A stretch of 64,000 nt of DNA. Origin: Pseudomonadota bacterium. GTDB taxonomy: Bacteria > Pseudomonadota > Alphaproteobacteria > Rhizobiales > Beijerinckiaceae. The position numbers and the translations under genes are program-made. The notes beneath the pieces are model-generated. The model saw only the letters and a program-made list of their open reading frames with translations. It had not been told where the DNA came from and searched no databases. The DNA lies in NCBI GenBank assembly GCA_021804825.1, contig JAJZGX010000002.1, positions 2,760 through 66,759 of the forward strand, read 5' to 3'. Positions 8,120 to 49,260 of the stretch are shown one piece after another (within the stretch, counting starts at the first letter, position 1; every line of letters starts with the position of its first letter).

Positions 8120-8147
8120 TTCACCCTGCTCCGGCTTTTGCGTCAGC

Positions 8148-8921
8148 TTACCAGCAGGTATAGCCGCCGTCGACCAGCATGATCGAACCGGTCATCAGGC
8201 TCGAAGCATCGCTCGCCAGGAACAGTACGGCCGAAGCGATTTCATGAGGTTGGCCGAGCCGCGCCATCGGCGTCATGTCGAGCCATTTCTTGAACATCTT
8301 TTTGTTGGTCTTGGCAAAGGCGGTCAGCGGCGTCTCGATATAGGTGGGCGCAACCGAATTGACCCTGACTTTGCGCTTGGCCCATTCGGCGGCCAGCGAT
8401 TTGGTCAGATGGTGCACCGCCGCCTTGGAAGCATTGTAATAGCTCTGCTCCTGCGGCATGTTGACGATAAAGCCGGACATCGAGCCGATGTTGACGATCG
8501 AACCACGCTTGGCGGTCAGCATGTGATTGCCGAAGGCGCGGCAGCACCAGAACGTGCCGTTGAGATTGACATCGAGGACATTGAGCCAATGCTCGTCGGT
8601 CACCGTTTCGGCCGGCGTCTCGCTGCGGGCAATGCCGGCATTGTTCACCAGAATGTCGATATGGCCATGCTTGGCGTTGAGTTCATCCGCAACTTGCGTA
8701 ACGCGCTTTGAGTCCGTCACGTCCATCTTGATGATGTCAGGCGCATAGCCCTTGGCTTTCATCGCATCGCGGCCTTCTTCGGCAACGCCCATATCGGCAT
8801 CGGCGATGATGACGTGCGCGCCTGCCTCGGACAGGGCCTCAACGCAGGCAAGGCCAATGCCGCGCCCGCCGCCCGTCACCACAGCATTGCGGCCCTTGAC
8901 CTTGAATTTCTTCATATACAT
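8148..8921 (-). CDS. Short-chain dehydrogenase, galactitol/polyol 2-dehydrogenase-like
   Basis: 257 aa with TGGGRGIG cofactor motif, YxxxK (YNASKAAVHHL) and C-terminal LVDGGYTCW. It resembles Rhodobacter GatDH-type SDRs from memory. AAGGAG RBS lies 8 nt upstream of ATG 8921. Confidence 0.8.
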   Translation of the reverse strand: MYMKKFKVKGRNAVVTGGGRGIGLACVEALSEAGAHVIIADADMGVAEEGRDAMKAKGYAPDIIKMDVTDSKRVTQVADELNAKHGHIDILVNNAGIARSETPAETVTDEHWLNVLDVNLNGTFWCCRAFGNHMLTAKRGSIVNIGSMSGFIVNMPQEQSYYNASKAAVHHLTKSLAAEWAKRKVRVNSVAPTYIETPLTAFAKTNKKMFKKWLDMTPMARLGQPHEIASAVLFLASDASSLMTGSIMLVDGGYTCW

Positions 8922-33766: not shown

Positions 33767-34459
33767 ATGAACGCGGTGGTTCAGGTGGACATGTGGGCTT
33801 GGTCGCTCGACCCGTCCGCGCATGCCATTGCCCATCATGCAGCGCTGCTTGATCGCGAAGAACGGGTGCGCGCCGGGCGCTTCCTCAACGAGCGTCATGG
33901 AAGCCGCTTTGTCGTCGGACGCGCCGGCATGCGGCTGCGGCTGGCGCGCTATATGAAAAAGTCTCCGGCCGATCTGGTCTTCACCTATGGCCCGCATGGC
34001 AAACCCATGCTGGCCGAAGCCGGTGCGCCGCATTTCAACTTGGCACATAGCGATGGCGAGGCGGTGCTGGCCGTCTGCCGCGAGCAGGCCGTGGGCGTCG
34101 ATGTCGAGCGTGGACACCGATTGGATACGGATATTGTCAGCCGGTTTTTTTCGGACGCAGAAATAGCCGCATGGCAACTGCTGCCGGACGCGTCGCGCGA
34201 GCGGGCGTTTTTCCGGGCATGGACCGCCAAGGAAGCGGTGTTGAAGGCGCTGGGCGTCGGATTGTCGGTGCCACTGTCGGCCTTCAGTGTGCGCATCAGC
34301 GCCGAAGAACCCCTGCAATTGCAATCGGCCCCACAGGGCGCAGCTTTGCCTGAAACCTGGTCCATGCAGGAATTTGCCCCGGCTCCTGACTATTATGGCA
34401 CATTGGCGGTGGCTGCGCCGCGCGTCGTCATAAACTGGCGGTCGCTGTCGGAGCGCTGA
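33767..34459 (+). CDS. 4'-phosphopantetheinyl transferase, Sfp/EntD type
   Basis: ATG 33767 is preferred over the TTG 33749 of the track, because the TTG lies inside the terminator T-run. Motifs: ..GPHGKPML.., FNLAHSDGEAVLAV, VGVDVER and FFRAWTAKEAVLKALGVG (W/KEA motif). Confidence 0.85.
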   Translation: MNAVVQVDMWAWSLDPSAHAIAHHAALLDREERVRAGRFLNERHGSRFVVGRAGMRLRLARYMKKSPADLVFTYGPHGKPMLAEAGAPHFNLAHSDGEAVLAVCREQAVGVDVERGHRLDTDIVSRFFSDAEIAAWQLLPDASRERAFFRAWTAKEAVLKALGVGLSVPLSAFSVRISAEEPLQLQSAPQGAALPETWSMQEFAPAPDYYGTLAVAAPRVVINWRSLSER

Positions 34460-37890: not shown

Positions 37891-38387
37891 CCATTTCTGC
37901 AACCCCCTCGGCCCGTGCCATTCTAGCTCCCGTCGTGCAGCAGGCCGTCGCGACCACAAGAATTTTCACCGTCCGGGTCGCTGATGAGACATTTGGCATC
38001 CCGGTGGCCGCTGTCCACACAGTGTTCATGATCGATCGGCTTTCGCCGGTGCCCTTGGCCCCTGTAGCGGTCATGGGACTGGTCAATCTGCGCGGCCGCA
38101 TCGTCACGGCACTGAGTTTGCGGCGCCGTCTCGGCCTTGCCGAGCTCAATGTCTCGACCAGAGTGGCCATCGTCATGGAAAACGAGGGTGAAATGCTGGC
38201 CCTCGTCGTTGATGAGGCCGGCGATGTCATTGATCTCGACGCCCATGACCAGATCGAATTGCCACGACACATGACGGCCAGCCGGGCCGCCGTGACCCGC
38301 GCGGTTTATCGCCATGCCCGCGGCCTGCTTTCCATCCTCGATATGGCGGCAATTTATGCCCTGACGCCCGCGATGACAAATTCCTGA
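37887..38387 (+). CDS. cheW: Chemotaxis coupling protein CheW
   Basis: 166 aa CheW-like domain (..IFTVRVADETFGIPVAAVHTV..VNLRGRIVT..). ATGA overlap with cheA. Confidence 0.9.
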   Translation: MTISATPSARAILAPVVQQAVATTRIFTVRVADETFGIPVAAVHTVFMIDRLSPVPLAPVAVMGLVNLRGRIVTALSLRRRLGLAELNVSTRVAIVMENEGEMLALVVDEAGDVIDLDAHDQIELPRHMTASRAAVTRAVYRHARGLLSILDMAAIYALTPAMTNS

Positions 38388-38421
38388 AACTTCACCCATG
38401 CTCACATCAAGGTCAAAAGTC

Positions 38422-38790
38422 ATGAAACACGTTCTGGTTGTCGACGATTCATCCGTCATCCGAAAAGTTGCCACCCGCATTCTCGAATCGATGCGCTTTG
38501 ACGCTTCCGAGGCACCTGGCGGGCGCGAGGCGCTGGCTGCCTGCCAGGAGCATATGCCCGATGCCATCCTGCTGGACTGGAACATGCCGGAGATGGATGG
38601 GTTTCAGTTCCTGCAGGAATTGCGTCGCATGCCAGGTGGCCACGGCCCCAAGGTGTTGTTCTGCACGACCGAGAACGAAGTGGCCTATATTGCAAAGGCC
38701 ATGCATGCCGGTGCCGACGAATATATCATGAAGCCGTTCGACAAGGATATATTCCGCTCGAAACTCCAGGAAATCGGCCTCATCGCGTAA
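38422..38790 (+). CDS. cheY: Chemotaxis response regulator CheY (single receiver domain)
   Basis: Start re-set to ATG 38422: MKHVLVVDDSSVIRKV..AILLDWNMPEMDGFQFL..IMKPF. Confidence 0.9.
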   Translation: MKHVLVVDDSSVIRKVATRILESMRFDASEAPGGREALAACQEHMPDAILLDWNMPEMDGFQFLQELRRMPGGHGPKVLFCTTENEVAYIAKAMHAGADEYIMKPFDKDIFRSKLQEIGLIA

Positions 38791-38824
38791 CGCCGCCACG
38801 CCACGCAGCAGGGGTCAGATCGAC

Positions 38825-39502
38825 ATGCGAACCGCACCGGATGCTCCAGGCGATGTCATAAAGGCGGTGGGCGAACCCATCGTCATGCGACGTTTTTCGC
38901 CCATGCCCCCCGCCGCGCTGCTGATAGGCGCTTCGACAGGCGGCCCGCAAGCCCTCGAACTTTTGCTGACAACCGCCTCGAGCTGGCTGCGGCTGCTGCC
39001 CATCGCTGTGGTGCTGCACGCGCCGCCCGGTTTCATCGAGGTCGTTGCTGCCAATATTGCCCGCGCTTCCGGCATGCCCACGCGGATCGCCTGCCATGGT
39101 GACAAATTCCTGCCCGGCACGATCTATTTCGCCCCCGGCGACAAGCATTTGCGAGTCATGCGGGCCGACCGCCGGGTGATCCTGATGCACAGCGATGCCA
39201 AGCCCGAGAATTTCTGCAAGCCGGCAGTGGACGTGCTGTTTTCCAGCGCCGCACGCGCTTTTGGCCCCGAGGCGCTGGGCATTGTGCTCACCGGCATGGG
39301 ACGCGATGGCCTGGCCGGTTCACGGATGCTCGTTGACGCTGGTGGCTCGGTGATCGTGCAGGACGAAGCCTCTAGCGCTGTCTGGGGCATGCCAGGGTCC
39401 ATTGCCCGCGCCGGACTGGCCAGCGCGGTCTTGCCGCTGGCCGGCATGGCTTCGGCGCTCGATGGCCTGCTGGTGGCGAAGCAGCGGAGGGTCACGGCGT
39501 GA
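38825..39502 (+). CDS. cheB: Protein-glutamate methylesterase CheB, catalytic domain only (no N-terminal receiver)
   Basis: 225 aa with the catalytic Ser motif IGASTGGPQAL, His in VLHAPPGF and Asp in LTGMGRDG. There is no REC domain in frame upstream. Confidence 0.88.
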   Translation: MRTAPDAPGDVIKAVGEPIVMRRFSPMPPAALLIGASTGGPQALELLLTTASSWLRLLPIAVVLHAPPGFIEVVAANIARASGMPTRIACHGDKFLPGTIYFAPGDKHLRVMRADRRVILMHSDAKPENFCKPAVDVLFSSAARAFGPEALGIVLTGMGRDGLAGSRMLVDAGGSVIVQDEASSAVWGMPGSIARAGLASAVLPLAGMASALDGLLVAKQRRVTA

Positions 39503-40365
39503 ACATGAACGTCAAAGCCCTCCAGAGATTTCTGTCGCAGCAGGCCGGTCTCGCCTTCCCGCCCGAGAAAGCCTGGCTCGCCGAAAGCCGCCTGCAGCCC
39601 GTGGTGGAACGCCACGGCCTTCCCACCATTGATGCGCTGATCGGCCAGATCGTTTCCGGTTTCGAGCCGCAGCTCGCCGCTGAAACCGTGGAAGCGATGC
39701 TGACCCACGAGACATTTTTCTTTCGCGATCGCCTGCCGTTTGATCAGTTCCGCACGACCATGCTGCCGGATATCATGCGCCTGCGCGATTCCGATCGCCG
39801 CATCCGTATCTGGTCTGCGGCCTGTTCAACCGGGCAGGAGCCCTATTCTTTGGCCATGCTGCTCGATGAGGAATCGCGCAAGCTGAATGGCTGGCGGGTT
39901 GAATTGCTGGCGTCGGATATTTCCGCTTCGGTCATTGATGTGGCGCGGCGTGGTTTGTTCTCGCAATTCGAGGTGCAGCGCGGTTTGCCGATCAACCACT
40001 TGCTGCGTTATTTCCATCGTGCCGGCGAATATTGGGAAATCGCCGAGCATATCCGGGCGCGGATCGAATTCCGGCAGATCAATCTCATGAGCAACATCAG
40101 CCGACTGGGCCAGTTCGACCTGATTTTTTGCCGCAACGTCCTGATCTATTTCGACGACAAAACCCGCGCCAGTGCACTCGCGCAATTGACCTCCGCGCTG
40201 GCGCCGGGTGGCTATCTGGTTTTGGGCGCCTCCGAATCCCTGCCCGACTGCCCGGAGGATCTGAAGCCCATGTCGTTTCAAAACAGCATTTTCCGCAAGA
40301 CTGAAGCGGGCTCGCCGCTGGAGCGCCATTGGGCGCAACCCGGCTCGCGCCTGAGCAAGCTGTAA
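39499..40365 (+). CDS. cheR: Chemotaxis protein methyltransferase CheR
   Basis: 288 aa with ..THETFFFRD.., the SAM motif RIWSAACSTGQEPYSLAM and ..IFCRNVLIYFD.. The start is GTG 39499 (overlapping the cheB stop) or ATG 39505. Confidence 0.92.
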   Translation: MNMNVKALQRFLSQQAGLAFPPEKAWLAESRLQPVVERHGLPTIDALIGQIVSGFEPQLAAETVEAMLTHETFFFRDRLPFDQFRTTMLPDIMRLRDSDRRIRIWSAACSTGQEPYSLAMLLDEESRKLNGWRVELLASDISASVIDVARRGLFSQFEVQRGLPINHLLRYFHRAGEYWEIAEHIRARIEFRQINLMSNISRLGQFDLIFCRNVLIYFDDKTRASALAQLTSALAPGGYLVLGASESLPDCPEDLKPMSFQNSIFRKTEAGSPLERHWAQPGSRLSKL

Positions 40366-40371
40366 CACGAG

Positions 40372-40950
40372 ATGCAGCCGCCACGCATTGTGGAGACCCT
40401 GCGGCTGACGCTGCGGCCTGTGGCGCTCGGGGACGCCCGCGAGATTTATCGCGGCTGGGCCGGGCGCGCCAAGGCCACCAGAATGATGAATTTTCCGCGC
40501 CATCTCAACCAGACAGCGAGCCAGGCCTGGGTCGAACGCTGTCTTCGCAACTGGCAAGAGGCAACGGCTTTTGCCTATATGATCCTCTTGCGGGATACCG
40601 GCGAGCGCATGGGGTCGATCGAAATAGCCCTGCAAGGCAGCGCTGCTGAAATCGGCTATATATTGGCAGAACAGTTCTGGGGCCGCGGCTATGCCACCGA
40701 GGCAACCAGGGCGCTGGTCGACTGGGCCGAAGCGCAGCGCGACATCGGCCGCATCAGCGCCACCTGCCACCCCGATAATATCGCCTCAAGCCGGGTCATT
40801 GAAAAAGCCGGATTGCACCTCGAAGGCCGTTTGGAGGATGCGACCAGCTGGCCGCAATTGCAGCGCAGCAATGGCCCTTGTCTGGTCTACAGCCGCTCCT
40901 TCGGAGGCCCGCGACAGCCGATCGAGCATGCGCCGCTCAGGCTGCAATGA
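40372..40950 (+). CDS. GNAT-family N-acetyltransferase (RimJ/RimL-like)
   Basis: 192 aa: LRLTLRPVALGDAREIY.. ..GYILAEQFWGRGYATEATRALVDWA.. ..NIASSRVIEKAGL.. It starts 6 nt after the cheR stop. Confidence 0.8.
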   Translation: MQPPRIVETLRLTLRPVALGDAREIYRGWAGRAKATRMMNFPRHLNQTASQAWVERCLRNWQEATAFAYMILLRDTGERMGSIEIALQGSAAEIGYILAEQFWGRGYATEATRALVDWAEAQRDIGRISATCHPDNIASSRVIEKAGLHLEGRLEDATSWPQLQRSNGPCLVYSRSFGGPRQPIEHAPLRLQ

Positions 40951-41929
40951 CGGCCGGGCGCGCCTTGGCCGCAATGGTTTCCAGCCAGCCGGCATAAAGC
41001 TCAACGGCGGTCTCGCGCCAGCGTTGGCGCGGCGTGTGCGTCGCCAGCACATCATCGAGGCGGTGCAGCAAGGCTGGGTCACGCTGCTGAATGGCCGTTG
41101 CGGCGAGGTCTTGCAGACGCTGGCGCAGCGCCGGTGAAAAATAACTGGTCGGCAAGGCCGGATGGTGGGCCGTTTCGCCGTTCAGAAAGCGGCGCACGTC
41201 GCGGCGATATTCGAGGCCGAGCGCATTGGCATTATATTCCGGATGGCCCTGGACAAAGAGCATGTGCGGGCTGGCGGCGCGGGTAAACCAGTCCGGCCCG
41301 GCTTCTGCGCTCTGGGTGAGAATGACATAGTCATTGGCACGCAATTGCGCGGCATCAAGCGTGTTGTAGCGCGATTGCGGCGTCAAAGGATTGCCGGCAA
41401 GATGGCGCAAGACCGGCGCATCGCCGACAAGTTCTGTCTGGAAGACGCCGCTGAGTTTCTCTTGCAGGCGCACCCGCTCGATGCCGTCAAGATGCAGCAC
41501 GGCGGCATGCGCGGCGCGACACGACCACAAAACCGGCAATTCCTGCGCCGCCGTCGTTGCAATCAGCGCCGCCATTTTGGCCCAATGCGGTTCGGCGCGC
41601 ATGTCAGGCAACAAGGCTTCGCCGCCGGTGACGACCAAAGCATCGAGGCCAGCTTCGCCAAGCGTGGCAACATCGGCCGAAGTGGCGGCAAGTTCTGCGG
41701 CGATTTCAGGATTGCGCGGAATTTCACTGATATGAAACAGGCTGAGCGTCAGCATGGGAAAGCCGAAGCCGAGCAGGCGGGCAGCGTTGGCGATGAGTTC
41801 GGCAAACTGCCGTTCGGTGGCGCGCAACGCCGCATCGGGCATGTTATTGACCAGGCCGATGCGCAGCGGCTTGCGCCGTTTGGGCAGGAACAGGTTGGGC
41901 AGGAACAGCTTCGTGTCATCGGTCGGCAT
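40937..41929 (-). CDS. MetA/HTS-family homoserine O-acyl(succinyl/acetyl)transferase homologue, divergent
   Basis: 330 aa. LRIGLVNNMPDAALRATERQF corresponds to the MetA LNLMPxK..TE.QF region. The catalytic Cys context is LWSCRAAHAAV and the His/Glu context is FVQGHPEYN. It has an extra C-terminal tail. It is the last gene of the 4-gene operon. Confidence 0.75.
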   Translation of the reverse strand: MPTDDTKLFLPNLFLPKRRKPLRIGLVNNMPDAALRATERQFAELIANAARLLGFGFPMLTLSLFHISEIPRNPEIAAELAATSADVATLGEAGLDALVVTGGEALLPDMRAEPHWAKMAALIATTAAQELPVLWSCRAAHAAVLHLDGIERVRLQEKLSGVFQTELVGDAPVLRHLAGNPLTPQSRYNTLDAAQLRANDYVILTQSAEAGPDWFTRAASPHMLFVQGHPEYNANALGLEYRRDVRRFLNGETAHHPALPTSYFSPALRQRLQDLAATAIQQRDPALLHRLDDVLATHTPRQRWRETAVELYAGWLETIAAKARPAVIAA

Positions 41930-41933
41930 CGGT

Positions 41934-43250
41934 TCAGCCTCCAGCTGCCAGGCGCAGGGGAGCGCGGTGCTTTACCGCCGCACCTAGCGCCTGATCGAGA
42001 TCAGCGATAATGTCGTCAATGTGCTCAATGCCAACACTGATGCGGATGGTTTCGGGACGAATCCCGGCCTTGATCTGATCCTCCGGGGTCATCTGCCGAT
42101 GGGTGGTGGAGGCCGGATGGCACGCCAGCGTCTTGGCATCGCCGATGTTGACGAGACGGCGCACCAGTTTCAGCGCGTCAAAGAACGCCTTGCCATCCTC
42201 CATGCTGCCGGCGATGCCAAAGGTCAGCAGCGAAGGCGCTTTGCCGCCAAGCTGGCTTTGCACCAGAGCGTGCCCGGGATGCTCGGGAAAGCCGGCATAA
42301 TTGACCCACCCCACCCGCCGATCATTCCGCAAAAACTGCGCCACGGCGCTGGCATTGCTGACATGGCGCTCCATGCGCAATGACAATGTTTCGATGCCCT
42401 GCATGAGCTGAAATGCGCTGGTCGCAGGCAGAATGGCGCCGGTCGTCCGCATCCAGACGGAGCGGGCGCGGGCGATATAGGCCCCCGCACCAAAGCGCTC
42501 GGCATAAACGAGGCCGTGATAGGAAAGGTCCGGCTCATTGAAAATCGGAAAGCGCGTTGGCTGCAGGCGCCAATCGAAGCGCCCTGAATCAATGATGATG
42601 CCGCCGAGCGTTGTGCCATGTCCGCCCATGAATTTGGTCAGCGAATGCACGACAATGTCGGCGCCATGCTCGATCGGGCGCAGCAAGGCCGGAGTCGCGA
42701 CGGTATTATCGACCAGCAGCGGCACGCCAGCCTCATGGGCGACACGGGCGATGGCAGCAATATCGCAGATATTGCCGGCCGGGTTGCCGACACTCTCGCA
42801 GAACACCGCGCGGGTGGTGTCGTCGATTTCAGCGGCAATATCTTCGGCGCTGTCACTTCTGGCGAAGCGCACCTTGATGCCTTGGCGTGGCAGCACATGC
42901 GCCAACAATGTGTGTGTGGTGCCATAGAGTTGCGGGGTGGCAACAATCGTGCCGCCGTGATCGGCCAGCGTCACAAAGGCATAATGCAGGGCCGCCTGCC
43001 CGCTGGCGACGGCGAGTGCACCAATGCCGCCCTCCATCGCCGCGACGCGTTTTTCGAGAATGTCCGTGGTCGGGTTGGAAATGCGGCTGTAGCGGAATCC
43101 CTCGGCCTCAAGATCAAACAAGGCGGCGGCATGGTCAGCGCTGTCGAAAATATACGCAGCCGTCTGATAAATCGGCACGCTCGCTGCCCTGGTGGTGGGG
43201 TCGCCATCGAAGCCAGCATGGATCGCCAATGTTTCCAATCGCATCGCCAT
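41934..43250 (-). CDS. metY: O-acetyl/O-succinyl-homoserine sulfhydrylase-type PLP enzyme (MetY/MetZ, Cys/Met-metabolism PLP family)
   Basis: 438 aa: ETLAIHAG.., YSRISNPT, the PLP-Lys motif VVHSLTKFMGGHG, and ..HPASTTH.. GGAGG RBS at 43252-43256 (minus strand). Confidence 0.88.
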   Translation of the reverse strand: MAMRLETLAIHAGFDGDPTTRAASVPIYQTAAYIFDSADHAAALFDLEAEGFRYSRISNPTTDILEKRVAAMEGGIGALAVASGQAALHYAFVTLADHGGTIVATPQLYGTTHTLLAHVLPRQGIKVRFARSDSAEDIAAEIDDTTRAVFCESVGNPAGNICDIAAIARVAHEAGVPLLVDNTVATPALLRPIEHGADIVVHSLTKFMGGHGTTLGGIIIDSGRFDWRLQPTRFPIFNEPDLSYHGLVYAERFGAGAYIARARSVWMRTTGAILPATSAFQLMQGIETLSLRMERHVSNASAVAQFLRNDRRVGWVNYAGFPEHPGHALVQSQLGGKAPSLLTFGIAGSMEDGKAFFDALKLVRRLVNIGDAKTLACHPASTTHRQMTPEDQIKAGIRPETIRISVGIEHIDDIIADLDQALGAAVKHRAPLRLAAGG

Positions 43251-43257
43251 GCCTCCG

Positions 43258-44187
43258 TCAGGTCAACTGCAGGCTGCGTCGCAGCTTGGCAGGCCAGAGC
43301 GCCGGATCGAGCCCATGCGTCGCAAACATCGCGACGGCGAGGCGATCCATGCCGAAGGCGACGCAACCGCTGTGCGGCATCGCACCGTCCTCATCGCGCA
43401 TGTCCCAGACTTCTGTGAAATGTTCGAGGTGGTAGTTGAAACTCATGCAGGCCGTGGGCTTGGTTGCTGACACCACGGGCACCAGCAACTCGAATTTCAG
43501 GGCCAACTGCACCTGACTTGCCGCCATTATCTCACCGCCGCGCCCGAAGAACGGATCATTGGCGACATCCACGCCATAGGCGAGGCCCAACTCATCGGCC
43601 ATGCCCTGGGCGCGCTCGATCCATTCGGCACGAAAGGCAAGGATTTGCTCGGCTGTGCCGATGCGCACAAATTCGCGCATCCGGAACGACTGCAAGCGAT
43701 CGATGGATTTTGAAGGTTCGCGGCGAAAACAATCGCAGGCGACATCGAACCAGAGGCCGGCGCGCGGCACCGGCCCGGCTTGCGCCGCCATGGGGTAGAT
43801 CGGGTAGCAACTCGCCGGGCTGAGCACCAGATCACTCGCCGCCAGCGCATCGGTCCAGTCGGATTGCCCGGCATTGAAGCTGGCGACTGTGCCGGTGATT
43901 TCCCGCTCGGAACCAGTAAGACAGCACATGCACCCAAGTAAATTGGGGAAGGAATTCAGATAGCCCGACCGCTCGATCATCTTGCGGCTCATCACCGGCG
44001 GAAACCTGAAGACCGCCGCCTGTGCCGGTCGTCGACTATCGATAAACGCCTCGAGGCCACGCACCACCGCCTCATAACGCCCGGTGCGCGCCAGCACGCC
44101 GTCCACACCCATCGGGCGAAACAGGGTCTCGATCAGCTCTTGCTGGCCATCGGCGTCGAGCGGAGCTGGTTTCAGGGCGACATTCAT
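43258..44187 (-). CDS. Truncated class II aminoacyl-tRNA-synthetase homologue (SerRS-like catalytic core), amino acid:[carrier-protein] ligase type
   Basis: 309 aa with no N-terminal tRNA-binding arm. Motif 2-like is DCFRREPSKSIDRLQSFRMREFV. A SerRS-like segment is ACMSFNYHLEHF. Motif 3-like is SGCVAFGMDRLAVAMF. A Cys/Glu/Cys set (SPASCYP, FRRE, SGC) matches the Zn site of the methanogen-type SerRS lineage. Confidence 0.75.
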   Translation of the reverse strand: MNVALKPAPLDADGQQELIETLFRPMGVDGVLARTGRYEAVVRGLEAFIDSRRPAQAAVFRFPPVMSRKMIERSGYLNSFPNLLGCMCCLTGSEREITGTVASFNAGQSDWTDALAASDLVLSPASCYPIYPMAAQAGPVPRAGLWFDVACDCFRREPSKSIDRLQSFRMREFVRIGTAEQILAFRAEWIERAQGMADELGLAYGVDVANDPFFGRGGEIMAASQVQLALKFELLVPVVSATKPTACMSFNYHLEHFTEVWDMRDEDGAMPHSGCVAFGMDRLAVAMFATHGLDPALWPAKLRRSLQLT

Positions 44188-44211: not shown

Positions 44212-45429
44212 TCAGGCGGTGAGCGTCGCTGGCATCGAGATCATCAGCGGGGATATCCCGAGATTGCCCAGAATGCGATCATTGTTGATCATCAACGGTG
44301 CGGAGAGAACGTCGCGCAAAGCACGGGCGTTGCTGGCTTCGCCATCTTCGCGGTAGCCCGGCAGGCCGTTGGCGCGCAGCGAGGCCATCACCGAGGCGAC
44401 GGCAAGCTCCGAGACATCAACCTTCAACAGAGTGATCGCCGTCTGAATATCGAGCTGGTTCAGCAAATCGGGCGTGCTGGCGGCATTTTCGTACTGGTCC
44501 AGCGTGTTGTTGAGCATGGCGCGCAGCGCGGTGAGATGGGTCGCGGCGCGGTTCAGCCAGGTGATGCCGGACGGCACAGTGCCGCTGCTGGTGGCCAATT
44601 TGCGCAAGTGCCGCCTTGCCCGCTCGTGCGCGCCCGCCGCAATGCCAGCCCAGACCCCGCCCCACATCAGATGCGCGGAGGGTATCATGGATTCGGCATG
44701 GATCGTGGCGTAATCGACCGGCATGATCTGGCCAATCTGGCCGCGGGCCTTGAGGCCGAACCCGGTCGAACACGTGCCCCGCATCCCCAGGGTCTCCCAA
44801 CCGAAGGTCGGCGTCAGGCTGTAGTCGCTCTTGTCCAGAATGACCAACACCTGGTCTGAAGCGGCGGCGGCGGCGCTGCGCCGGGCCGTGGTCACCAAGG
44901 CATCGGCCTGCTCGCCGTAAGACAACACTGTTGCAGCCCGCTCCAGCGTGAAAAAGCCACCATCCTCGATGACTGGCCCCGTGGAATTGCGCACATCGCC
45001 GCCGCTTTGGCCTTCGGTGGTGGACGAGGCCAGAAGCAATTGGTCAGTGACCATGCGCCGCATGAAGGCCATGTGCCACGGGCTTTCGCCATAATGGCCG
45101 ATGATGCAGGCAGCCTTGACGTGGTGCATCGCAAAAATCATCGCGGTCGAGGCGCAGGTCTGCCCCAGAATAAAGCAAACCTCGACAATGTCGCGCACGC
45201 TGGCGCCGCTGCCGCCAAAAGTGGTCGGCACCATGGCACCAAGCAATTTGTGCTCGCGCACCGCCGCCATGGCTTCATGCGGAAAGCGGCTGGCCCGATC
45301 GACTTGCGCGGCATGGGTGTTGGCGATGGCGGCAATTTTGTGTGCACTTTGCACAAACGGGCTGCTTTTCTTCGTTGACGCATCCAGCATGCCGTGCATA
45401 GATTGATGTATGTTCACGCCGATCTCCAT
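44212..45429 (-). CDS. Acyl-CoA dehydrogenase-fold flavoprotein (ACAD type-2 / DszC-SfnB-PltE-like)
   Basis: 405 aa: ..RFPHEAMAAVREHKLLGAMVPTTFGGSGAS.. ..TEGQSGGDV.. ..WETLGMRGTCS.. It is the first gene of the operon, directly downstream of the AT-rich region. Confidence 0.8.
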   Translation of the reverse strand: MEIGVNIHQSMHGMLDASTKKSSPFVQSAHKIAAIANTHAAQVDRASRFPHEAMAAVREHKLLGAMVPTTFGGSGASVRDIVEVCFILGQTCASTAMIFAMHHVKAACIIGHYGESPWHMAFMRRMVTDQLLLASSTTEGQSGGDVRNSTGPVIEDGGFFTLERAATVLSYGEQADALVTTARRSAAAAASDQVLVILDKSDYSLTPTFGWETLGMRGTCSTGFGLKARGQIGQIMPVDYATIHAESMIPSAHLMWGGVWAGIAAGAHERARRHLRKLATSSGTVPSGITWLNRAATHLTALRAMLNNTLDQYENAASTPDLLNQLDIQTAITLLKVDVSELAVASVMASLRANGLPGYREDGEASNARALRDVLSAPLMINNDRILGNLGISPLMISMPATLTA

Positions 45430-45590
45430 AAGCTCTCTGGATAACTTCTTGCTTAATGAAGTTAACCTTGCATGTCCGAAAAGTTTTACAACAGGAAATT
45501 GATCATATCGCTAACAAAGGCAGTAAAGATAAAATTATATTTATAGTTCAATTTTATGATGTTATTTAATGTTTTGTTGACTCTGGTTTT
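45430..45590. promoter_or_regulatory. AT-rich divergent promoter/regulatory island between the ACAD-ligase operon (-) and the GST gene (+)
   Basis: I count 47 G+C in the 160 nt 45431-45590 (about 29%) and 23/100 in 45481-45580, against visibly GC-rich flanks. Runs include aaagataaaattatatttatagttcaattttatgatgttatttaatgtttt. I could not fix a -35/-10 pair with confidence. Confidence 0.6.
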
Positions 45591-45728
45591 CTTCGCGCGC
45601 GCGAGGTGGCCACGGGGACGCACGCCATTGCGGAAAACCGCAAGATTGCGGCATCAACGCCGCGCAGGGCCTTGCTTCAGACGCGAAGCAGCGTCAAAAT
45701 TGCATCCAACTCGAAGAGGTCCGTCGTG

Positions 45729-46352
45729 ATGCAACTTTATAATTCGCCCCTGTCACCCAATGGCCGCATTGTCCTGCTGACGGCGCGTCATCTCGGGCTT
45801 GAGCTCGACACCCATGTGGTCAATGTCGCCGCTGGTGAGCACAAGTCGCCAGATTATCTCAAGCTCAACCCCAATGGCCTGTTTCCGGTGCTGGTGGATG
45901 GCGATTTCAAATTGTGGGAGGCCAATGCCATAGCGCAGTTTTTGTGCAGCAAGGTGCCTGGCACGCGGCTCTGGCCGCAACAGGGCAGGGCGCAGGCCGA
46001 TGTGACGCGCTGGCAGTTCTGGGCGGTCGCGCATTGGCTGCCGGCGCTGGCGCCGTTTTTCCGGGAAAATTACTTCAAGCAGTTGCGTCGACAGGGCGAG
46101 CCGGATGCAGCGGTGCTGGCGGCGGCCCTGCCGCAGTTGCAGCGGTTCGCCACCGTGCTGGAGGGCGCGCTCACCGGGCGCACCTGGCTTGCCGGTGACA
46201 GTGTGACCTTGGCAGATTTCGCGGTGGCTGCCGGATTGATGTTTCTCGAGGCTGGCAAATTGCCGCTGCACGACTACAAGGCCATCATGGCCTGGTTCGA
46301 GTCCATCAGGGCGCTGCCGGCCTGGGCGGAAACCACACCAAGGCTGCCATAA
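45729..46352 (+). CDS. Glutathione S-transferase family protein
   Basis: Start re-set to ATG 45729 (MQLYNSPLSPNGRIVLLTARHLGLELD..) with an AAGAGG RBS. N-terminal thioredoxin-like domain (..NPNGLFPVLVDGD..LWEANAI..) and a C-terminal alpha domain. Confidence 0.85.
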   Translation: MQLYNSPLSPNGRIVLLTARHLGLELDTHVVNVAAGEHKSPDYLKLNPNGLFPVLVDGDFKLWEANAIAQFLCSKVPGTRLWPQQGRAQADVTRWQFWAVAHWLPALAPFFRENYFKQLRRQGEPDAAVLAAALPQLQRFATVLEGALTGRTWLAGDSVTLADFAVAAGLMFLEAGKLPLHDYKAIMAWFESIRALPAWAETTPRLP

Positions 46353-46442
46353 CCACATACTATATTTGTGCAATAAAATAATTTACAATTTGATTGTGGT
46401 AATATAGGAGATGGGTATTCGGTTGAACCCAAAGGACGTGTC

Positions 46443-47348
46443 ATGCCTGCCCTGAGTCGTCATCTGCGCGCGCTGGAAAGCGAGGCGATTTTCATCATGC
46501 GCGAGACAGTGGCAGAATTTGCGCATCCCGTGATGCTGTATTCGATCGGCAAGGATTCCAGCGTCATGCTGCATGTGGCGCTCAAGGCCTTCAGTCCCGG
46601 TCGCCTGCCGTTCCCGCTGCTGCATGTCGATACGACATGGAAATTTCGTGAAATGATCGCCTTTCGCGATGCGGTGGCCGCGCGCCATGAGCTGAAGATG
46701 ATTGTCCATATCAACCAGCAGGGGCTTGAACGCGGTGTTTCGCCGATCACTTCCGGGTCGTCGGTGCACACCCATGTCATGAAGACCGAGGGGCTGCGCC
46801 AAGCGCTGGACCAGCACCAGTTTGACGCAGCCTTCGGCGGGGCGCGGCGCGACGAAGAAAAATCGCGCGCCAAGGAACGCATCTTTTCGCACCGGTCGTC
46901 GGCCCATGCGTGGGATCCGCGCAACCAGCGCCCGGAATTGTGGAATCTTTTCAACACCCGCATCAAGCGCGGTGAATCCATGCGGGTGTTCCCCCTGTCG
47001 AACTGGACCGAGGCCGACGTGTGGGATTATATTGCCGCCGAAAATATCGCGGTGCCGGACCTTTATTTAGCCAAGCCGCGCCCGGTCGTCTGGCGCGACG
47101 GCACCTGGATCATGGTCGATGATGAGCGCTTGCCGTTGTTGCCGGGCGAGAACCCGGAGATCAAGATGGTGCGCTTTCGCACGCTTGGCTGCTATCCGCT
47201 GACCGGTGCCGTGCCATCGACCGCCACCACCTTGCCCGAGATCATCGCCGAAATGCGCAGTTCCAGCGTGTCTGAACGCCAGGGACGCCTGATTGACGCC
47301 GATGAGACCGGGTCGATGGAAAAGAAAAAGCGTGAGGGATATTTCTGA
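46443..47348 (+). CDS. cysD: Sulfate adenylyltransferase subunit 2
   Basis: 301 aa: [14 protein letters not shown].., [16 protein letters not shown] (PP-loop), ..[18 protein letters not shown]-terminus. Confidence 0.95.
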
Positions 47349-47349
47349 C

Positions 47350-49260
47350 ATGACCGCTCATGCCCTAGCCAGCGCCGATGCTCCTGCGTCCGCCGCTGCC
47401 CTTGCCACGAATTCTTTGGATTTGCCGACATTGCGCTTCATCACCTGCGGGTCGGTGGATGATGGCAAATCGACGCTGATCGGCCGTCTGCTGTTCGAGC
47501 GCCGCCTGATCCCCGATGATTTGCTTGCAACCCTGCGGCGCGACAGTCTGCGCCATGGCACGGATGGCGACAATATCGACTATGCCTTGCTGGTAGATGG
47601 TCTCGAAGCCGAGCGCGAACAGGGCATCACCATTGATGTCGCCTGGCGCTATTTTGCCACGCCGACCCGCTCCTTCATGGTGGCAGATACGCCCGGCCAT
47701 GAGCAATATACCCGCAATATGGCGACCGGCGCTTCGCAGGCCGATTGCGCTGTGGTGCTGGTTGATGCGCGCAAGGGCGTCTCGCGCCAAACGCGACGCC
47801 ACGCTGCCATTGTCGCGCTGATGGGGGTTCGTCATGTCATTCTGGCGGTCAACAAGATCGACCTGGTTGCTTATGATGCCGCCGTCTTCCATGCCATTGC
47901 CGCTGAATTTACCGCTTTCGCCACGCGTCTGGGGCTTGAAGGCGTCGTCGCTCTGCCTCTGGCGGCGCGGTTTGGCGATAATATGTCGGCGCGGGGCGAG
48001 CGGCTGGGCTGGTTTGATGGCCCGACGCTGATCGAAGCGCTGGAGCGTGTCAGCATCACGTCAACCATGGTGCCCCTGCCTTTTCGCATGTGGGTGCAAT
48101 GGGTAAACCGGCCCGATCTGAATTTTCGCGGGTTGGCGGGGACCATTGCCAGCGGCAGCATCGGCGTTGGCGACAGCGTGGTGATGGCACCCTCGGGGGC
48201 TAGTGCCAAAATCCGCCGCATCCACACGGCCGATGGTGATCTCACCCGCGCCACAACCGGCGATGCCGTCAGCCTCGTGCTCGATCACGAAATCGATGCG
48301 GCGCGCGGCGACCTTGTTTCGATGCCGGAAAGTCGTCCGCAGGTTGCTGACCAATTTGCCGCGCATCTCATCTGGATGAGCGCGGACAAGCTGTTGCCGG
48401 GCCGCTCTTATCTGATGAAAATCGGCTCGCGGTTGGTGCCGACTTCCGTGACCGCCATCCGCAGGCGCATCGATGTCGATACTCTGGAACCGCTGGCCGC
48501 CGCGACTCTCGACCTCAACGAGATCGGCGTCTGCAACCTGTCGACCAGCGTGCCGATCAGCTTTGATGCCTATGCCGACAATCACGCCACCGGGGCTTTC
48601 ATTCTGATCGACCGCGAAACCAATGTTACGGCAGCGGCGGGCATGATTGATTTTGCGCTGCGGCGGGCCACCAATGTCCATCGTCAGGCCTTGGTGATCA
48701 ACAAGGCCGAGCGCGCCACACTCAAGGGCCAAAAGCCGCTGATCCTGTGGTTTACCGGCCTTTCCGGGTCCGGCAAATCGACCATCGCCAATCTGGTGGA
48801 GGCGAGGCTGCACGCCATGAGCGCCCACACCACCTTGCTCGATGGCGATAATATGCGCCATGGTCTCAACCGCAACCTTGGCTTCACCAATGCTGACCGG
48901 GTGGAAAATATCCGACGTGTTGGCGAAGTCGCCAAACTGATGCTGGAAGCGGGCGTCATCGCGCTGTGCTCGTTCATCTCGCCCTTCAAAGCTGATCGCG
49001 ATATGGTGCGGGCACTGGTCGAACCCGGTGAATTCATCGAAATTTACGTCGAGACCAGCCTGGAAGCCTGTATCGCCCGCGATACCAAGGGCCTCTACAA
49101 GCGCGCCTTGGCAGGCCAGATCAAGAATTTCACGGGGATCGATCAGCCCTATGAGGCACCGGAAGCCGCTGAACTGGTGCTGACCACCGAAGGCGCATCG
49201 GCAGAGGCTCTGGCTGATCGGGTGATCGACTATGTGCTCGCGCACGGCATGCGGGGCTGA
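47350..49260 (+). CDS. cysNC: Bifunctional sulfate adenylyltransferase subunit 1 / adenylylsulfate (APS) kinase (CysN-CysC fusion, NodQ-like)
   Basis: Start re-set to ATG 47350, 1 nt after the cysD stop. GTPase motifs are GSVDDGKST, DTPGHEQY and NKID. The C-terminal APS kinase has the P-loop GLSGSGKST. Confidence 0.93.
   Translation: MTAHALASADAPASAAALATNSLDLPTLRFITCGSVDDGKSTLIGRLLFERRLIPDDLLATLRRDSLRHGTDGDNIDYALLVDGLEAEREQGITIDVAWRYFATPTRSFMVADTPGHEQYTRNMATGASQADCAVVLVDARKGVSRQTRRHAAIVALMGVRHVILAVNKIDLVAYDAAVFHAIAAEFTAFATRLGLEGVVALPLAARFGDNMSARGERLGWFDGPTLIEALERVSITSTMVPLPFRMWVQWVNRPDLNFRGLAGTIASGSIGVGDSVVMAPSGASAKIRRIHTADGDLTRATTGDAVSLVLDHEIDAARGDLVSMPESRPQVADQFAAHLIWMSADKLLPGRSYLMKIGSRLVPTSVTAIRRRIDVDTLEPLAAATLDLNEIGVCNLSTSVPISFDAYADNHATGAFILIDRETNVTAAAGMIDFALRRATNVHRQALVINKAERATLKGQKPLILWFTGLSGSGKSTIANLVEARLHAMSAHTTLLDGDNMRHGLNRNLGFTNADRVENIRRVGEVAKLMLEAGVIALCSFISPFKADRDMVRALVEPGEFIEIYVETSLEACIARDTKGLYKRALAGQIKNFTGIDQPYEAPEAAELVLTTEGASAEALADRVIDYVLAHGMRG

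Follow-up and report, generated by a model that had tools for sequence, protein, structure and literature searches.

Organization of the locus

The window analyzed here, a continuous 64-kb stretch of DNA, contains a tightly spaced minus-strand operon with the gene order ACAD–ligase–MetY–MetA, inside which Shine-Dalgarno-like sequences are found. The aa:CP (amino acid:[carrier protein]) ligase gene occupies positions 43258..44187 (minus strand), where the preliminary description had placed it; the reading frame is genuine, begins with ATG and encodes a 309-aa product. An ACAD-fold flavoprotein of 405 aa (44212..45429, minus strand; Pfam Acyl-CoA_dh_N) is encoded 24 nt upstream of the ligase. 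On the other side, the gene for a MetY-type O-acetylhomoserine sulfhydrylase, a PLP enzyme (41934..43250, minus strand), starts 7–13 nt past the ligase stop; its product scores 584 bits with TIGR01326 against a cutoff of 495 and matches Pfam Cys_Met_Meta_PP with an E-value of 1e-126. The last gene, located 4 nt past the MetY stop (40937..41929, minus strand), encodes a divergent homoserine O-acyltransferase of the MetA/HTS family, 330 aa in length. It matches Pfam HTS (E 2e-47) and reaches 293 bits with NF003776, under the cutoff of 358, which eight of the nine cluster-linked MetA genes tested from reference loci pass (the ninth scores 337). Alignment with E. coli MetA indicated that the putative catalytic Cys and the His-x-Glu motif, which we take to be the catalytic residues of the E. 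coli enzyme, are kept in the window protein. The same gene layout is found in a 90%-identical relative.

The operon is separated from the GST/CysD/CysNC genes by a divergent intergenic region (45430..45605) with a GC content of 34%. A promoter-like site is present within it on the minus strand (45580..45551), and the region is likely the operon promoter region. In other genomes this is the position of the carrier-protein gene; no carrier-like ORF was found in the region here. A snoRNA match within it was rejected, being at chance level (E 0.57). The window gave no Rfam match at the gathering threshold, and hence none for a riboswitch, of the SAM or any other class, upstream of the operon. An Sfp/HetI-type phosphopantetheinyl transferase gene lies 9 kb from the ligase and was counted in support of carrier-protein chemistry in this organism.

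Family assignment and architecture of the ligase

The aa:CP ligase family was characterized biochemically and structurally in 2010–2013. Against the curated NCBIfam equivalog of the family (NF005479, named ‘amino acid--[acyl-carrier-protein] ligase’), the window protein scores 430.3 bits, above the cutoff of 357, with an E-value of 3.4e-129, and the match spans ligase residues 13–308 and model positions 21–317 of 318. The best solved relative is Bradyrhizobium japonicum/diazoefficiens Bll0957 (PDB 3mey, 4h2s and others), which carries the PDB label ‘Amino acid--[acyl-carrier-protein] ligase 1’, belongs to the same length class and fold family, and is a Gly:CP ligase; its alignment with the window ligase covers residues 7–306 with a single one-residue gap (E 4.3e-119). 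Identity over the full length is 59%, as measured on the Bradyrhizobium diazoefficiens homologue among the reference loci (L057), whose neighboring carrier protein is near-identical to Bsr0959 and which was therefore treated as the orthologue of Bll0957. Methanogen-type SerRS families rank next (NF002120, 76.7 bits where the cutoff is 611; TIGR00415, 59.9 bits against 489.55), and the Pfam tRNA-synt_2b match is weak, at 26 bits under a gathering score of 29.3.

These matches, far stronger than chance would give, bear out the family proposed in the preliminary description and support an assignment, on sequence grounds, of the window protein as a predicted aa:CP ligase of the Bll0957 subfamily, within the methanogen-type SerRS lineage. 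In the NCBIfam profile search no HisZ, EpmA/PoxA or AsnA model matched the ligase at E ≤ 0.01, so the placement in another aaRS paralogue class that the preliminary description had named as one outcome counting against its assignment did not materialize. With more than 7,000 homologues on record, some of them already correctly named in NCBI and nr records, the window ligase is typical of a large, annotated family, and stands out only by its missing carrier gene and its methionine-gene operon.

The product is a stand-alone class II catalytic core, and every motif string quoted beforehand was located in it. Motif 2, DCFRREPSKSIDRLQSFRMREFV, comprises residues 152–174 (43666..43734, minus strand) and contains Arg155, Glu157 and the zinc-ligand Glu172; ACMSFNYHLEHF corresponds to residues 246–257; motif 3, SGCVAFGMDRLAVAMF, comprises residues 273–288 (43324..43371, minus strand) and contains Cys275, Ala277 and Arg282. 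The FRRE of motif 2 (R155, E157) and the GMDR of motif 3 (R282) are intact and invariant in a 23-sequence family alignment. Homologues are 303–319 aa long, and those of 303–310 aa align over 94–100% of the window protein, which is of full length and has no additional N- or C-terminal domain. The type-2 SerRS match is confined to model positions 306–504 of 518 (PDB chain residues 310–505). Since methanogen-type SerRS is matched only over its catalytic half, the tRNA-binding N-terminal domain is absent, and the earlier observation that the protein has neither a tRNA-binding arm nor an anticodon-binding domain holds. Methanogen-type SerRS (2cim, 3w3s) thus shares with the window ligase a homologous core, motifs 2 and 3 and a Cys/Glu/Cys zinc site, but differs in its N-terminal ~300 residues, including the tRNA-binding domain, which the ligase lacks.

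Predicted zinc site and amino-acid specificity

The preliminary description had placed the zinc ligands at the Cys of SPASCYP, the Glu of FRRE and the Cys of HSGC. Both cysteines stand: Cys127 (SPASCYP; 43807..43809, minus strand) is the first zinc ligand by alignment, pairing with the PAqCeP Cys of type-2 SerRS 3w3s, and HSGC contains C275. The glutamate was misassigned, as E157 of FRRE is the canonical motif-2 Glu and it is E172, in the RMREF part of the motif 2 segment (codon 43672-43674, minus strand), that aligns with the zinc ligand. In the alignment with M. barkeri SerRS 2cim, E172 corresponds to chain residue 375 and C275 to chain residue 481; subtracting the 20-residue tag gives Glu355 and Cys461, which we take to be the zinc ligand numbers of Bilokapic et al. 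2006. C127, R155, E157, E172, C275, A277 and R282 are all invariant in the 23-sequence family alignment, and the site is conserved with either glutamate, because C127, E157, E172 and C275 are all among them. By alignment offset, C127/E172/C275 correspond to C131/E176/C279 of Bll0957, which has the same zinc triad and the same Ala two residues past the second Cys (Ala277, Ala281 in Bll0957). The pattern points to a Cys/Glu/Cys site inherited from methanogen-type SerRS and predicted to bind metal.

The alanine at the Bll0957 Ala281 position, taken as a hint of the small amino-acid pocket of the Gly-specific, Bll0957-like subgroup, is kept as Ala277, and two clade-specific substitutions, T273S and G258T, fall near active-site motifs. 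An A281G variant of Bll0957 is reported to have been studied, and A281 reportedly has a role in specificity (Marsavelski et al. 2014). Enzymes of the family are zinc-dependent; they attach Gly or Ala to a carrier protein's phosphopantetheine (Ppant) arm and leave tRNA uncharged (PMC9437257, PMC5370406); for Bll0957, Bll6282 and Atu2573, activity on the holo-carrier Ppant thiol and lack of tRNA charging are summarized in the same sources. Methanogen-type SerRS, in contrast, uses Ser and tRNA, whereas the substrates reported for the family of the window ligase are Gly or Ala and the Ppant thiol. By analogy with these relatives, the amino acid used by the window enzyme would be small, most probably glycine.

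Carrier-protein gene in reference loci

Comparison with 80 reference loci revealed that the ACAD-fold gene is directly upstream of the ligase in essentially all of them. A Bsr0959-type carrier-protein gene adjoins the ACAD/ligase pair in 75; the remaining five loci are truncated by contig ends, so that all 75 informative loci contain the carrier gene. The carrier is identical in type to Bsr0959 (PDB 4h2s_C, E 2e-49). MetY and MetA genes are also present in about half of the reference loci, in at least four arrangements, and one locus (L038) has the order ACAD–ligase–[carrier]–MetY–MetA, with the carrier gene in place.

The carrier gene was searched for with two profile HMMs, one per cluster carrier family, built from 45 and 19 sequences; a positive control locus (L086) scored E-values of 7e-34 and 4e-39 with them. 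No carrier gene of either cluster type was detected in the 64-kb window (best E 1.9–2.8, below 5 bits and not credible) or in about 10 kb beyond each of its ends, a total coverage of about 84 kb, and the contig from the 90%-identical relative likewise gave none at E ≤ 1. A PROSITE-style Ppant-site regular expression, run on the six-frame translation, was dropped as uninformative because it misses the known cluster carriers, whose motif is GLTSxDMV and not DSL. The matter of the acceptor, which the preliminary description had called unknown, is sharpened by these results: the dedicated carrier gene, universal among informative loci, is missing from about 84 kb around this ligase.

The Bll0957 locus shares with the window the ACAD-fold partner gene upstream of the ligase. 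It differs in that Bsr0959 lies divergently beside the pair, with MtnP and MtnA coming next, whereas the window has no carrier gene and MetY and MetA follow the ligase. Agrobacterium Atu2573, reportedly an Ala-preferring aa:CP ligase (Mocibob et al. 2010), has by description the same enzyme family and reaction type and a dedicated small carrier, Atu2571 (PDB 2jq4, 4h2w_C). The Agrobacterium neighborhood comprises a Rossmann-fold redox enzyme, a conserved uncharacterized ORF and genes for cell-surface polysaccharides (PMC2922099); it differs from that of the window, and ACAD, MetY and MetA are not mentioned in that paper.

The ACAD-fold flavoprotein partner

AlphaFold modeling of the flavoprotein yielded an ACAD fold with a pLDDT of 82. 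A fold search returned DszC/TdsC, 3-sulfinopropionyl-CoA desulfinase and ACADs as the best matches, at 17–20% identity. E-values of 1e-13 to 1e-16 were obtained alike for DszC/TdsC, the desulfinase, classical ACADs, TcsD and nitrososynthases, and these matches do not discriminate between a dehydrogenase and a monooxygenase. In the C-terminal region where classical ACADs have their catalytic Glu, located here by eye, the flavoprotein has the residues M-I-N-N, invariant in its family.

In PDB, the flavoprotein's closest sequence match is 6cxt_B (E 2e-11). Chain 6cxt_A of that entry ranks second among the PDB matches of the Bsr0959-type carrier; the entry combines an ACAD-fold chain, the fold shared by the window flavoprotein, with a 77-aa carrier-like chain. 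Among NCBIfam models, those of L-prolyl-[peptidyl-carrier protein] dehydrogenase, of PigA and of the acyl-ACP dehydrogenase MbtN were also matched weakly by the flavoprotein. The 6cxt match and those to carrier-linked dehydrogenases fit an enzyme acting on a carrier-tethered thioester, and the flavoprotein is presumed to modify the aminoacyl thioester. The ACAD fold is likewise common to the window protein and the FK506 acyl-ACP/acyl-CoA dehydrogenase TcsD (6u1v); set against carrier-dependent ACAD-fold flavoenzymes, the window flavoprotein is only 17–20% identical to any solved structure.

Divergence and selection in the carrier-less clade

Comparison of the ligase with that of the 90%-identical relative gave a dN/dS of 0.058 at a dS of about 1, next to 0.044 for MetY and 0.041 for CysD. 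The ligase is under strong purifying selection in the carrier-less clade and is still in use; a pseudogene reading was rejected on these values.

The clade carries seven specific substitutions, which also set it apart from Bll0957, at ligase positions that are at least 85% conserved elsewhere: Y32L, E58A, K78N, R103S, R137A, G258T and T273S. Three conserved basic residues are lost among them (K78N, R103S, R137A), as many as in only one of 187 other sequences. These changes suggest a possible shift of the acceptor surface or of the pocket for the amino acid. Changes in conserved columns number 10 in the ligase (mean 3.8) and 19–24 in the flavoprotein (mean 5.1), and conserved Lys/Arg residues are lost in both proteins.

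Residues 217–227 of the ligase (GGEIMAASQVQ; 43507..43539, minus strand) resemble the consensus GGQLMAxSQxQ. This segment is the sole difference between the PDB sequences u50432 and u63803, which are two Bll0957 constructs. The variant construct was co-crystallized with the carrier protein of Agrobacterium (4h2w_C and Atu2571 have their sequence match in common), and on this basis residues 217–227 are presumed to be the carrier-protein recognition segment.

Proposed function and alternative readings

We consider it fairly probable that the window encodes a zinc-dependent aa:CP ligase of the Bll0957 type that is served by a carrier protein in trans, with the ligase/flavoprotein pair placed in a MetY/MetA operon. 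The class II core would bind ATP and a small amino acid, the amino group of which would rest on the Cys127/Glu172/Cys275 zinc, and would form an aminoacyl-adenylate. Instead of going to tRNA, the aminoacyl group would then pass to the 4'-phosphopantetheine thiol of a small dedicated carrier protein, and the resulting thioester may serve as the substrate of the co-transcribed ACAD-fold flavoprotein. A gene elsewhere in the genome would provide the carrier protein, the pair having been fused into one operon with MetY and MetA.

An unlikely reading is that the acceptor has changed and the clade ligase loads CoA, a small thiol such as cysteine or homocysteine, or a Cys or Ppant group of an operon partner, feeding the homoserine-sulfur chemistry of MetY and MetA. 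The absence of the carrier gene from about 84 kb and from the relative's contig, set beside its presence in every informative locus, would be consistent with such a change, as would the gap of only 7–13 nt between ligase and MetY where L038, in the same gene order, keeps the carrier. The excess of conserved-column changes and the lost Lys/Arg residues in both ligase and flavoprotein point the same way, and free CoA and cysteine are aminoacylated in vitro by aa:CP ligases (PMC5370406). However, residues 217–227 are still near the family consensus, a phosphopantetheinyl transferase gene lies nearby, and the excess of substitutions represents a single evolutionary event that could be ordinary lineage divergence. 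Carrier genes can also work in trans, and the sequence at hand covers just part of the genome.

Two further readings were weighed. That the ligase is a decaying, non-functional remnant carried along in the operon after loss of the carrier gene would agree with the missing obligate partner and the several substitutions at conserved positions; we regard it as very improbable, given that the reading frame is unbroken and keeps every catalytic and zinc residue, that constraint against the relative with the same gene order is comparable to that on MetY and CysD, and that the operon retains tight spacing and Shine-Dalgarno-like sequences. A tRNA synthetase fragment or another aaRS paralogue (HisZ, EpmA/PoxA, AsnA-like, or a SerRS/GlyRS subunit) finds some footing in the class II core and the subthreshold tRNA-synt_2b match. 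It is nevertheless extremely improbable: the family assignment is unambiguous, SerRS models reach only 60–77 bits against cutoffs of 490–611, tRNA- and anticodon-binding domains are lacking, and the closest solved structures are carrier-protein complexes. A HisZ, EpmA or AsnA identity was rejected outright on the NF005479 score and the lack of matches to those models.

Physiological context

A 2022 review (PMC9437257) still gave the physiological role of aa:CP ligases as unknown, and our literature search found no later paper assigning one. Going beyond the ligase itself, we tentatively hypothesize, while regarding it as quite unlikely, that the ligase/ACAD pair acts in a conserved pathway with MetY- and MetA-type enzymes, of which the window clade represents a four-gene, carrier-free core using another thiol acceptor. 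If true, this would link an aminoacyl thioester to the activation of homoserine and its gamma-replacement, provide a first physiological handle on aa:CP ligases, and tie them to sulfur/methionine metabolism, not to peptide or cell-surface synthesis.

On its own, the gene adds little to a known family, and its carrier-less setting is only modestly curious. More is gained from the context: across the reference loci, the Bll0957 subfamily is constantly accompanied by a single type of ACAD-fold flavoprotein and a single type of carrier protein, and the window clade offers a pared-down natural form that lacks the carrier gene. Methionine-related genes recur beside the pair, with MtnP/MtnA as its neighbors in Bradyrhizobium and CysD/CysNC in the window.

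Identification of the ligase family

The ligase gene, encoding 309 residues, occupies 43258..44187 (-) and starts with an ATG located 24 nt past the stop of the preceding gene, with GGAG 11 nt upstream. The product is complete; homologues of 303–319 aa cover 94–100% of its length. All motif strings quoted in the preliminary description were located in this translation: DCFRREPSKSIDRLQSFRMREFV at residues 152–174, ACMSFNYHLEHF at 246–257, SGCVAFGMDRLAVAMF at 273–288, as well as SPASCYP, which includes C127, and HSGC, which includes C275.

In Pfam, the class II core family tRNA-synt_2b was matched below threshold (26 bits vs 29.3). The curated NCBIfam equivalog NF005479, "amino acid--[acyl-carrier-protein] ligase" (cutoff 357 bits), was matched over nearly the whole model at 430.3 bits (E 3.4e-129). 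The top solved structure was Bradyrhizobium Bll0957, "Amino acid--[acyl-carrier-protein] ligase 1" (E 4.3e-119; PDB 3mey and, in complex with its carrier, 4h2s-v), aligned over residues 7–306 with one gap of one residue. Over its full length, the protein is 59% identical to the homologue from Bradyrhizobium diazoefficiens at reference locus L057; this homologue was taken as the Bll0957 orthologue because its neighbouring carrier protein is near-identical to Bsr0959, the carrier of Bll0957. The next relative is the methanogen-type SerRS, whose likeness is confined to the catalytic half: its model was matched at positions 306–504 of 518 (77 bits vs a cutoff of 611), and the SerRS structures 3w3s and 2cim over residues 310–505 and 363–510, respectively, in agreement with the earlier view that the protein has no tRNA-binding part. 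An NCBIfam search revealed no match to HisZ, EpmA/PoxA or AsnA models at E ≤ 0.01; together with the NF005479 and Bll0957 placement, this supports the initial interpretation of the protein as an aa:CP (amino acid:[carrier protein]) ligase. The family is large: of 8,000 scored candidates, 7,382 matched at E ≤ 1e-5, and the correct name already appears in part of the NCBI and nr records. By sequence, the protein is a new member of a known, already annotated family, probably Bll0957-like in its working. It has the sequence features of membership (equivalog score, stand-alone catalytic core, class II motifs and zinc ligands), and the one family feature missing is contextual, namely an adjacent carrier gene. 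The finding is sound but unremarkable, though its context offers a useful lead.

Zinc site

The preliminary description proposed a conserved Cys/Glu/Cys zinc site with the FRRE glutamate, E157, as a ligand. The site holds, but E157 is the standard motif-2 Glu, and it is E172 (RMREF) that aligns with the ligand position. In the alignment with 2cim, E172 and C275 correspond to residues 375 and 481 of the 522-residue chain, or 355 and 461 assuming a 20-residue tag, modelled on the tag inferred for the Bll0957 chains. These positions agree with Cys306/Glu355/Cys461, which we take to be the zinc ligands of M. barkeri SerRS. The offset to Bll0957 is +24 in the chain and +4 in native numbering (the L057 alignment gives the native protein 326 aa), by which C127, E172, C275 and A277 map to C131, E176, C279 and A281. 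The first three agree with Cys131/Glu176/Cys279, presumably the Bll0957 zinc ligands, and A277 falls at the position of A281G, which we take to be a specificity mutant. Conservation of the site stands despite the wrong Glu, since C127, C275, E157 and E172 are all invariant in a 23-sequence alignment. In methanogen SerRS, the zinc has Cys and Glu as its ligands along with water (PMC7373986).

Operon architecture in the window

The window has a compact operon on the minus strand, ACAD–ligase–MetY–MetA, in which the ligase gene comes second. The first gene (44212..45429 (-); Pfam Acyl-CoA_dh_N) encodes an acyl-CoA dehydrogenase (ACAD)-fold protein and is separated from the ligase by 24 nt. After a gap of 7–13 nt follows a MetY-type O-acetylhomoserine sulfhydrylase (41934..43250 (-); TIGR01326 584 bits, above 495), and after a further 4 nt a MetA/HTS-family acyltransferase (40937..41929 (-); Pfam HTS E 2e-47). 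The latter scores under the MetA equivalog cutoff (293 vs 358 bits); aligned to E. coli MetA, it keeps the Cys and His-x-Glu that we take to be catalytic. Its 3' end overlaps that of a convergent GNAT acetyltransferase gene (40372–40950 (+)) by 14 nt (40937–40950).

Upstream of the operon lies a 176-bp intergenic region (45430–45605) of 34% GC, compared with ~60% for the window, with a promoter-like site and runs such as AAATAACATCATAAAATTGAACTATAAATATAATTTTATC. The stretch presumably has a regulatory role for both sides, and searches against Rfam gave no riboswitch or other family for it or for the window. On its other side, the divergent genes for GST, CysD and a CysN/CysC fusion (sulfate activation) occupy 45729–49260 (+). 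L085, the locus of a 90%-identical relative, keeps this layout. With these genes, a third class of sulfur- or methionine-related gene adjoins the aa:CP ligase family.

Conserved neighbours across reference loci

A one-genome-per-species scan yielded 591 relatives of the ligase, of which the best 80 were retrieved together with 10 kb on either side; these derive from Caulobacterales, Beijerinckiaceae, Xanthobacteraceae including Bradyrhizobium, Rhizomicrobium, Steroidobacteraceae and other Gamma- and Betaproteobacteria. An ACAD-fold gene (49–59% identity) lies directly upstream of the ligase in essentially all 80 loci, and its product is an obligatory partner of the ligase. A 90-aa carrier protein, encoded mostly divergently from the ACAD gene, adjoins this pair in 75 loci; in each of the other five, the contig breaks off at most 1.7 kb from the ligase. 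For the Bradyrhizobium carrier, PDB 4h2s_C, "Aminoacyl carrier protein 1", is a near-identical match (E 1.8e-49). Genes that also recur nearby encode two AMP-binding enzymes, a second, 81-aa carrier protein, an SDR, an alpha/beta hydrolase, a 309-aa protein, a ThDP enzyme, a class IV aminotransferase and a cupin. The 309-aa neighbour, which has no Pfam or NCBIfam match, occurs in 53/80 loci (in the range L005–L084; e.g., L013 13542–14471 (+)), often beside the second carrier and the two AMP-binding enzymes, and is absent from the window.

Within 10 kb of the ligase, MetY is found in 39 and MetA in 37 of the 80 loci, always abutting cluster genes, in at least four arrangements: MetA–MetY adjoining an AMP ligase; 3' of the second AMP ligase; MetA in the direction of the carrier gene and divergent from ACAD–ligase; or every gene on one strand (L023, L038). 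Chance alone should bring a given single-copy gene to within 10 kb of another in far fewer than 1% of genomes. In Gammaproteobacteria and other MAGs (L035, L049, L077, L021, L015, L053; about 7300–8650), the MetA-type gene adjoins the carrier gene co-directionally, a hint that the carrier and the MetA-like enzyme may act together. Bradyrhizobium loci instead have, after the carrier gene and on its strand, genes for MtnP (MTA phosphorylase) and MtnA (MTR-1-P isomerase), both over NCBIfam equivalog cutoffs (about 5900–8400 in L024, L026, L027, L044, L055, L057 and other loci), which connects the characterised Bll0957 system with methionine salvage.

Absence of the carrier gene and divergence of the clade

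Profile HMMs of both carrier families and six other cluster families (limit E ≤ 10, filters off) gave no credible hit within the 64 kb of the window (best E 0.01–2.8, under 11 bits), and carrier, AMP-ligase, hydrolase and 309-aa-protein profiles gave no match at E ≤ 1 in ~10 kb of the source contig past each window end. In the positive control, locus L086, the two carrier families were recovered at E 7e-34 and 4.5e-39. The 90%-identical ligase comes from another soil metagenome, and its locus shows the same layout, CysNC–CysD–GST and then, divergently, ACAD–ligase–MetY–MetA, with different genes downstream; no carrier gene was found there either. In L038 the order is ACAD–ligase–carrier–MetY–MetA, and the window layout looks like this arrangement minus the carrier gene.

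The ligase is under purifying selection and is not decaying: against the 90%-identical relative, at a dS of about 1, near saturation, dN/dS was 0.058 for the ligase, 0.044 for MetY, 0.041 for CysD, 0.086 for MetA and 0.166 for ACAD. Clade-specific changes at columns at least 85% conserved among 187 other sequences comprise Y32L/M, E58A, K78N, R103S/G, R137A, G258T and T273S, along with one inserted residue. The ligase deviates at 10 conserved columns (mean 3.8, sd 3.1) and has lost three conserved Lys/Arg, equalled by only one of the 187 others; the flavoprotein deviates at 19–24 (mean 5.1, sd 3.7), R28 and R280 included. This pattern would fit an altered interaction with the acidic carrier, but the conserved-column changes count as a single lineage event. 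Ligase residues 217–227 are near the family consensus; the same segment differs between two crystallised Bll0957 constructs, the variant being the one co-crystallised with the Agrobacterium carrier.

ACAD-fold flavoprotein

The best PDB sequence match of the flavoprotein was 6cxt_B (E 1.8e-11), and the 77-aa chain 6cxt_A was the second-best match of the Bsr0959-type carrier; we take 6cxt to be a prolyl-carrier-protein dehydrogenase whose crystal also contains its carrier domain. The AlphaFold model (pLDDT 82) matched DszC/TdsC monooxygenases, a 3-sulfinopropionyl-CoA desulfinase, classical ACADs and TcsD to a similar degree, with 17–20% identity. Residues 380–383 read M-I-N-N, invariant in the family alignment, whereas classical acyl-CoA dehydrogenases, aligned by eye only, have the catalytic Glu (Y-E-G) there; the C-terminal tail around this motif has a pLDDT under 50.

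Proposed function

The aa:CP ligases are zinc-dependent dimers that activate Gly or Ala with ATP and load the amino acid onto a dedicated carrier protein, at its Ppant thiol, without charging tRNA; free CoA or cysteine can be acylated as well (PMC9437257, PMC5370406). The ligase belongs to this family, with class II motifs and zinc ligands intact, tRNA-binding parts absent and purifying selection acting on it. Since Ala277 is conserved, it would prefer glycine, and the aminoacyl thioester may be handed over to the ACAD-fold flavoprotein. For the Agrobacterium-type neighbourhood, a 2010 note predicted amino-acylation of a cell-surface sugar (PMC2922099); the Bll0957-type neighbourhood differs in having ACAD, carrier, AMP ligases and MetY/MetA, and our literature search found no paper assigning it a function. 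On a speculative and rather improbable reading, the system would be linked to homoserine and sulfur metabolism, and the window clade would run it without a dedicated carrier.

The carrier protein could be supplied in trans, an idea that gains some support from a gene for a 230-aa Sfp/HetI-type 4'-phosphopantetheinyl transferase at 33767..34459 (+) (Pfam ACPS; passing the TIGR00556 domain model; 141 bits on NCBIfam HetI, below the model cutoff). This gene shows that the organism modifies carrier proteins besides AcpP. It lies 9 kb from the ligase, with no carrier gene nearby, past a complete chemotaxis cluster, CheA–CheW–response regulator–CheB–CheR (35329–40365), which separates it from the operon; an HPTransfase-family gene is directly upstream of CheA.
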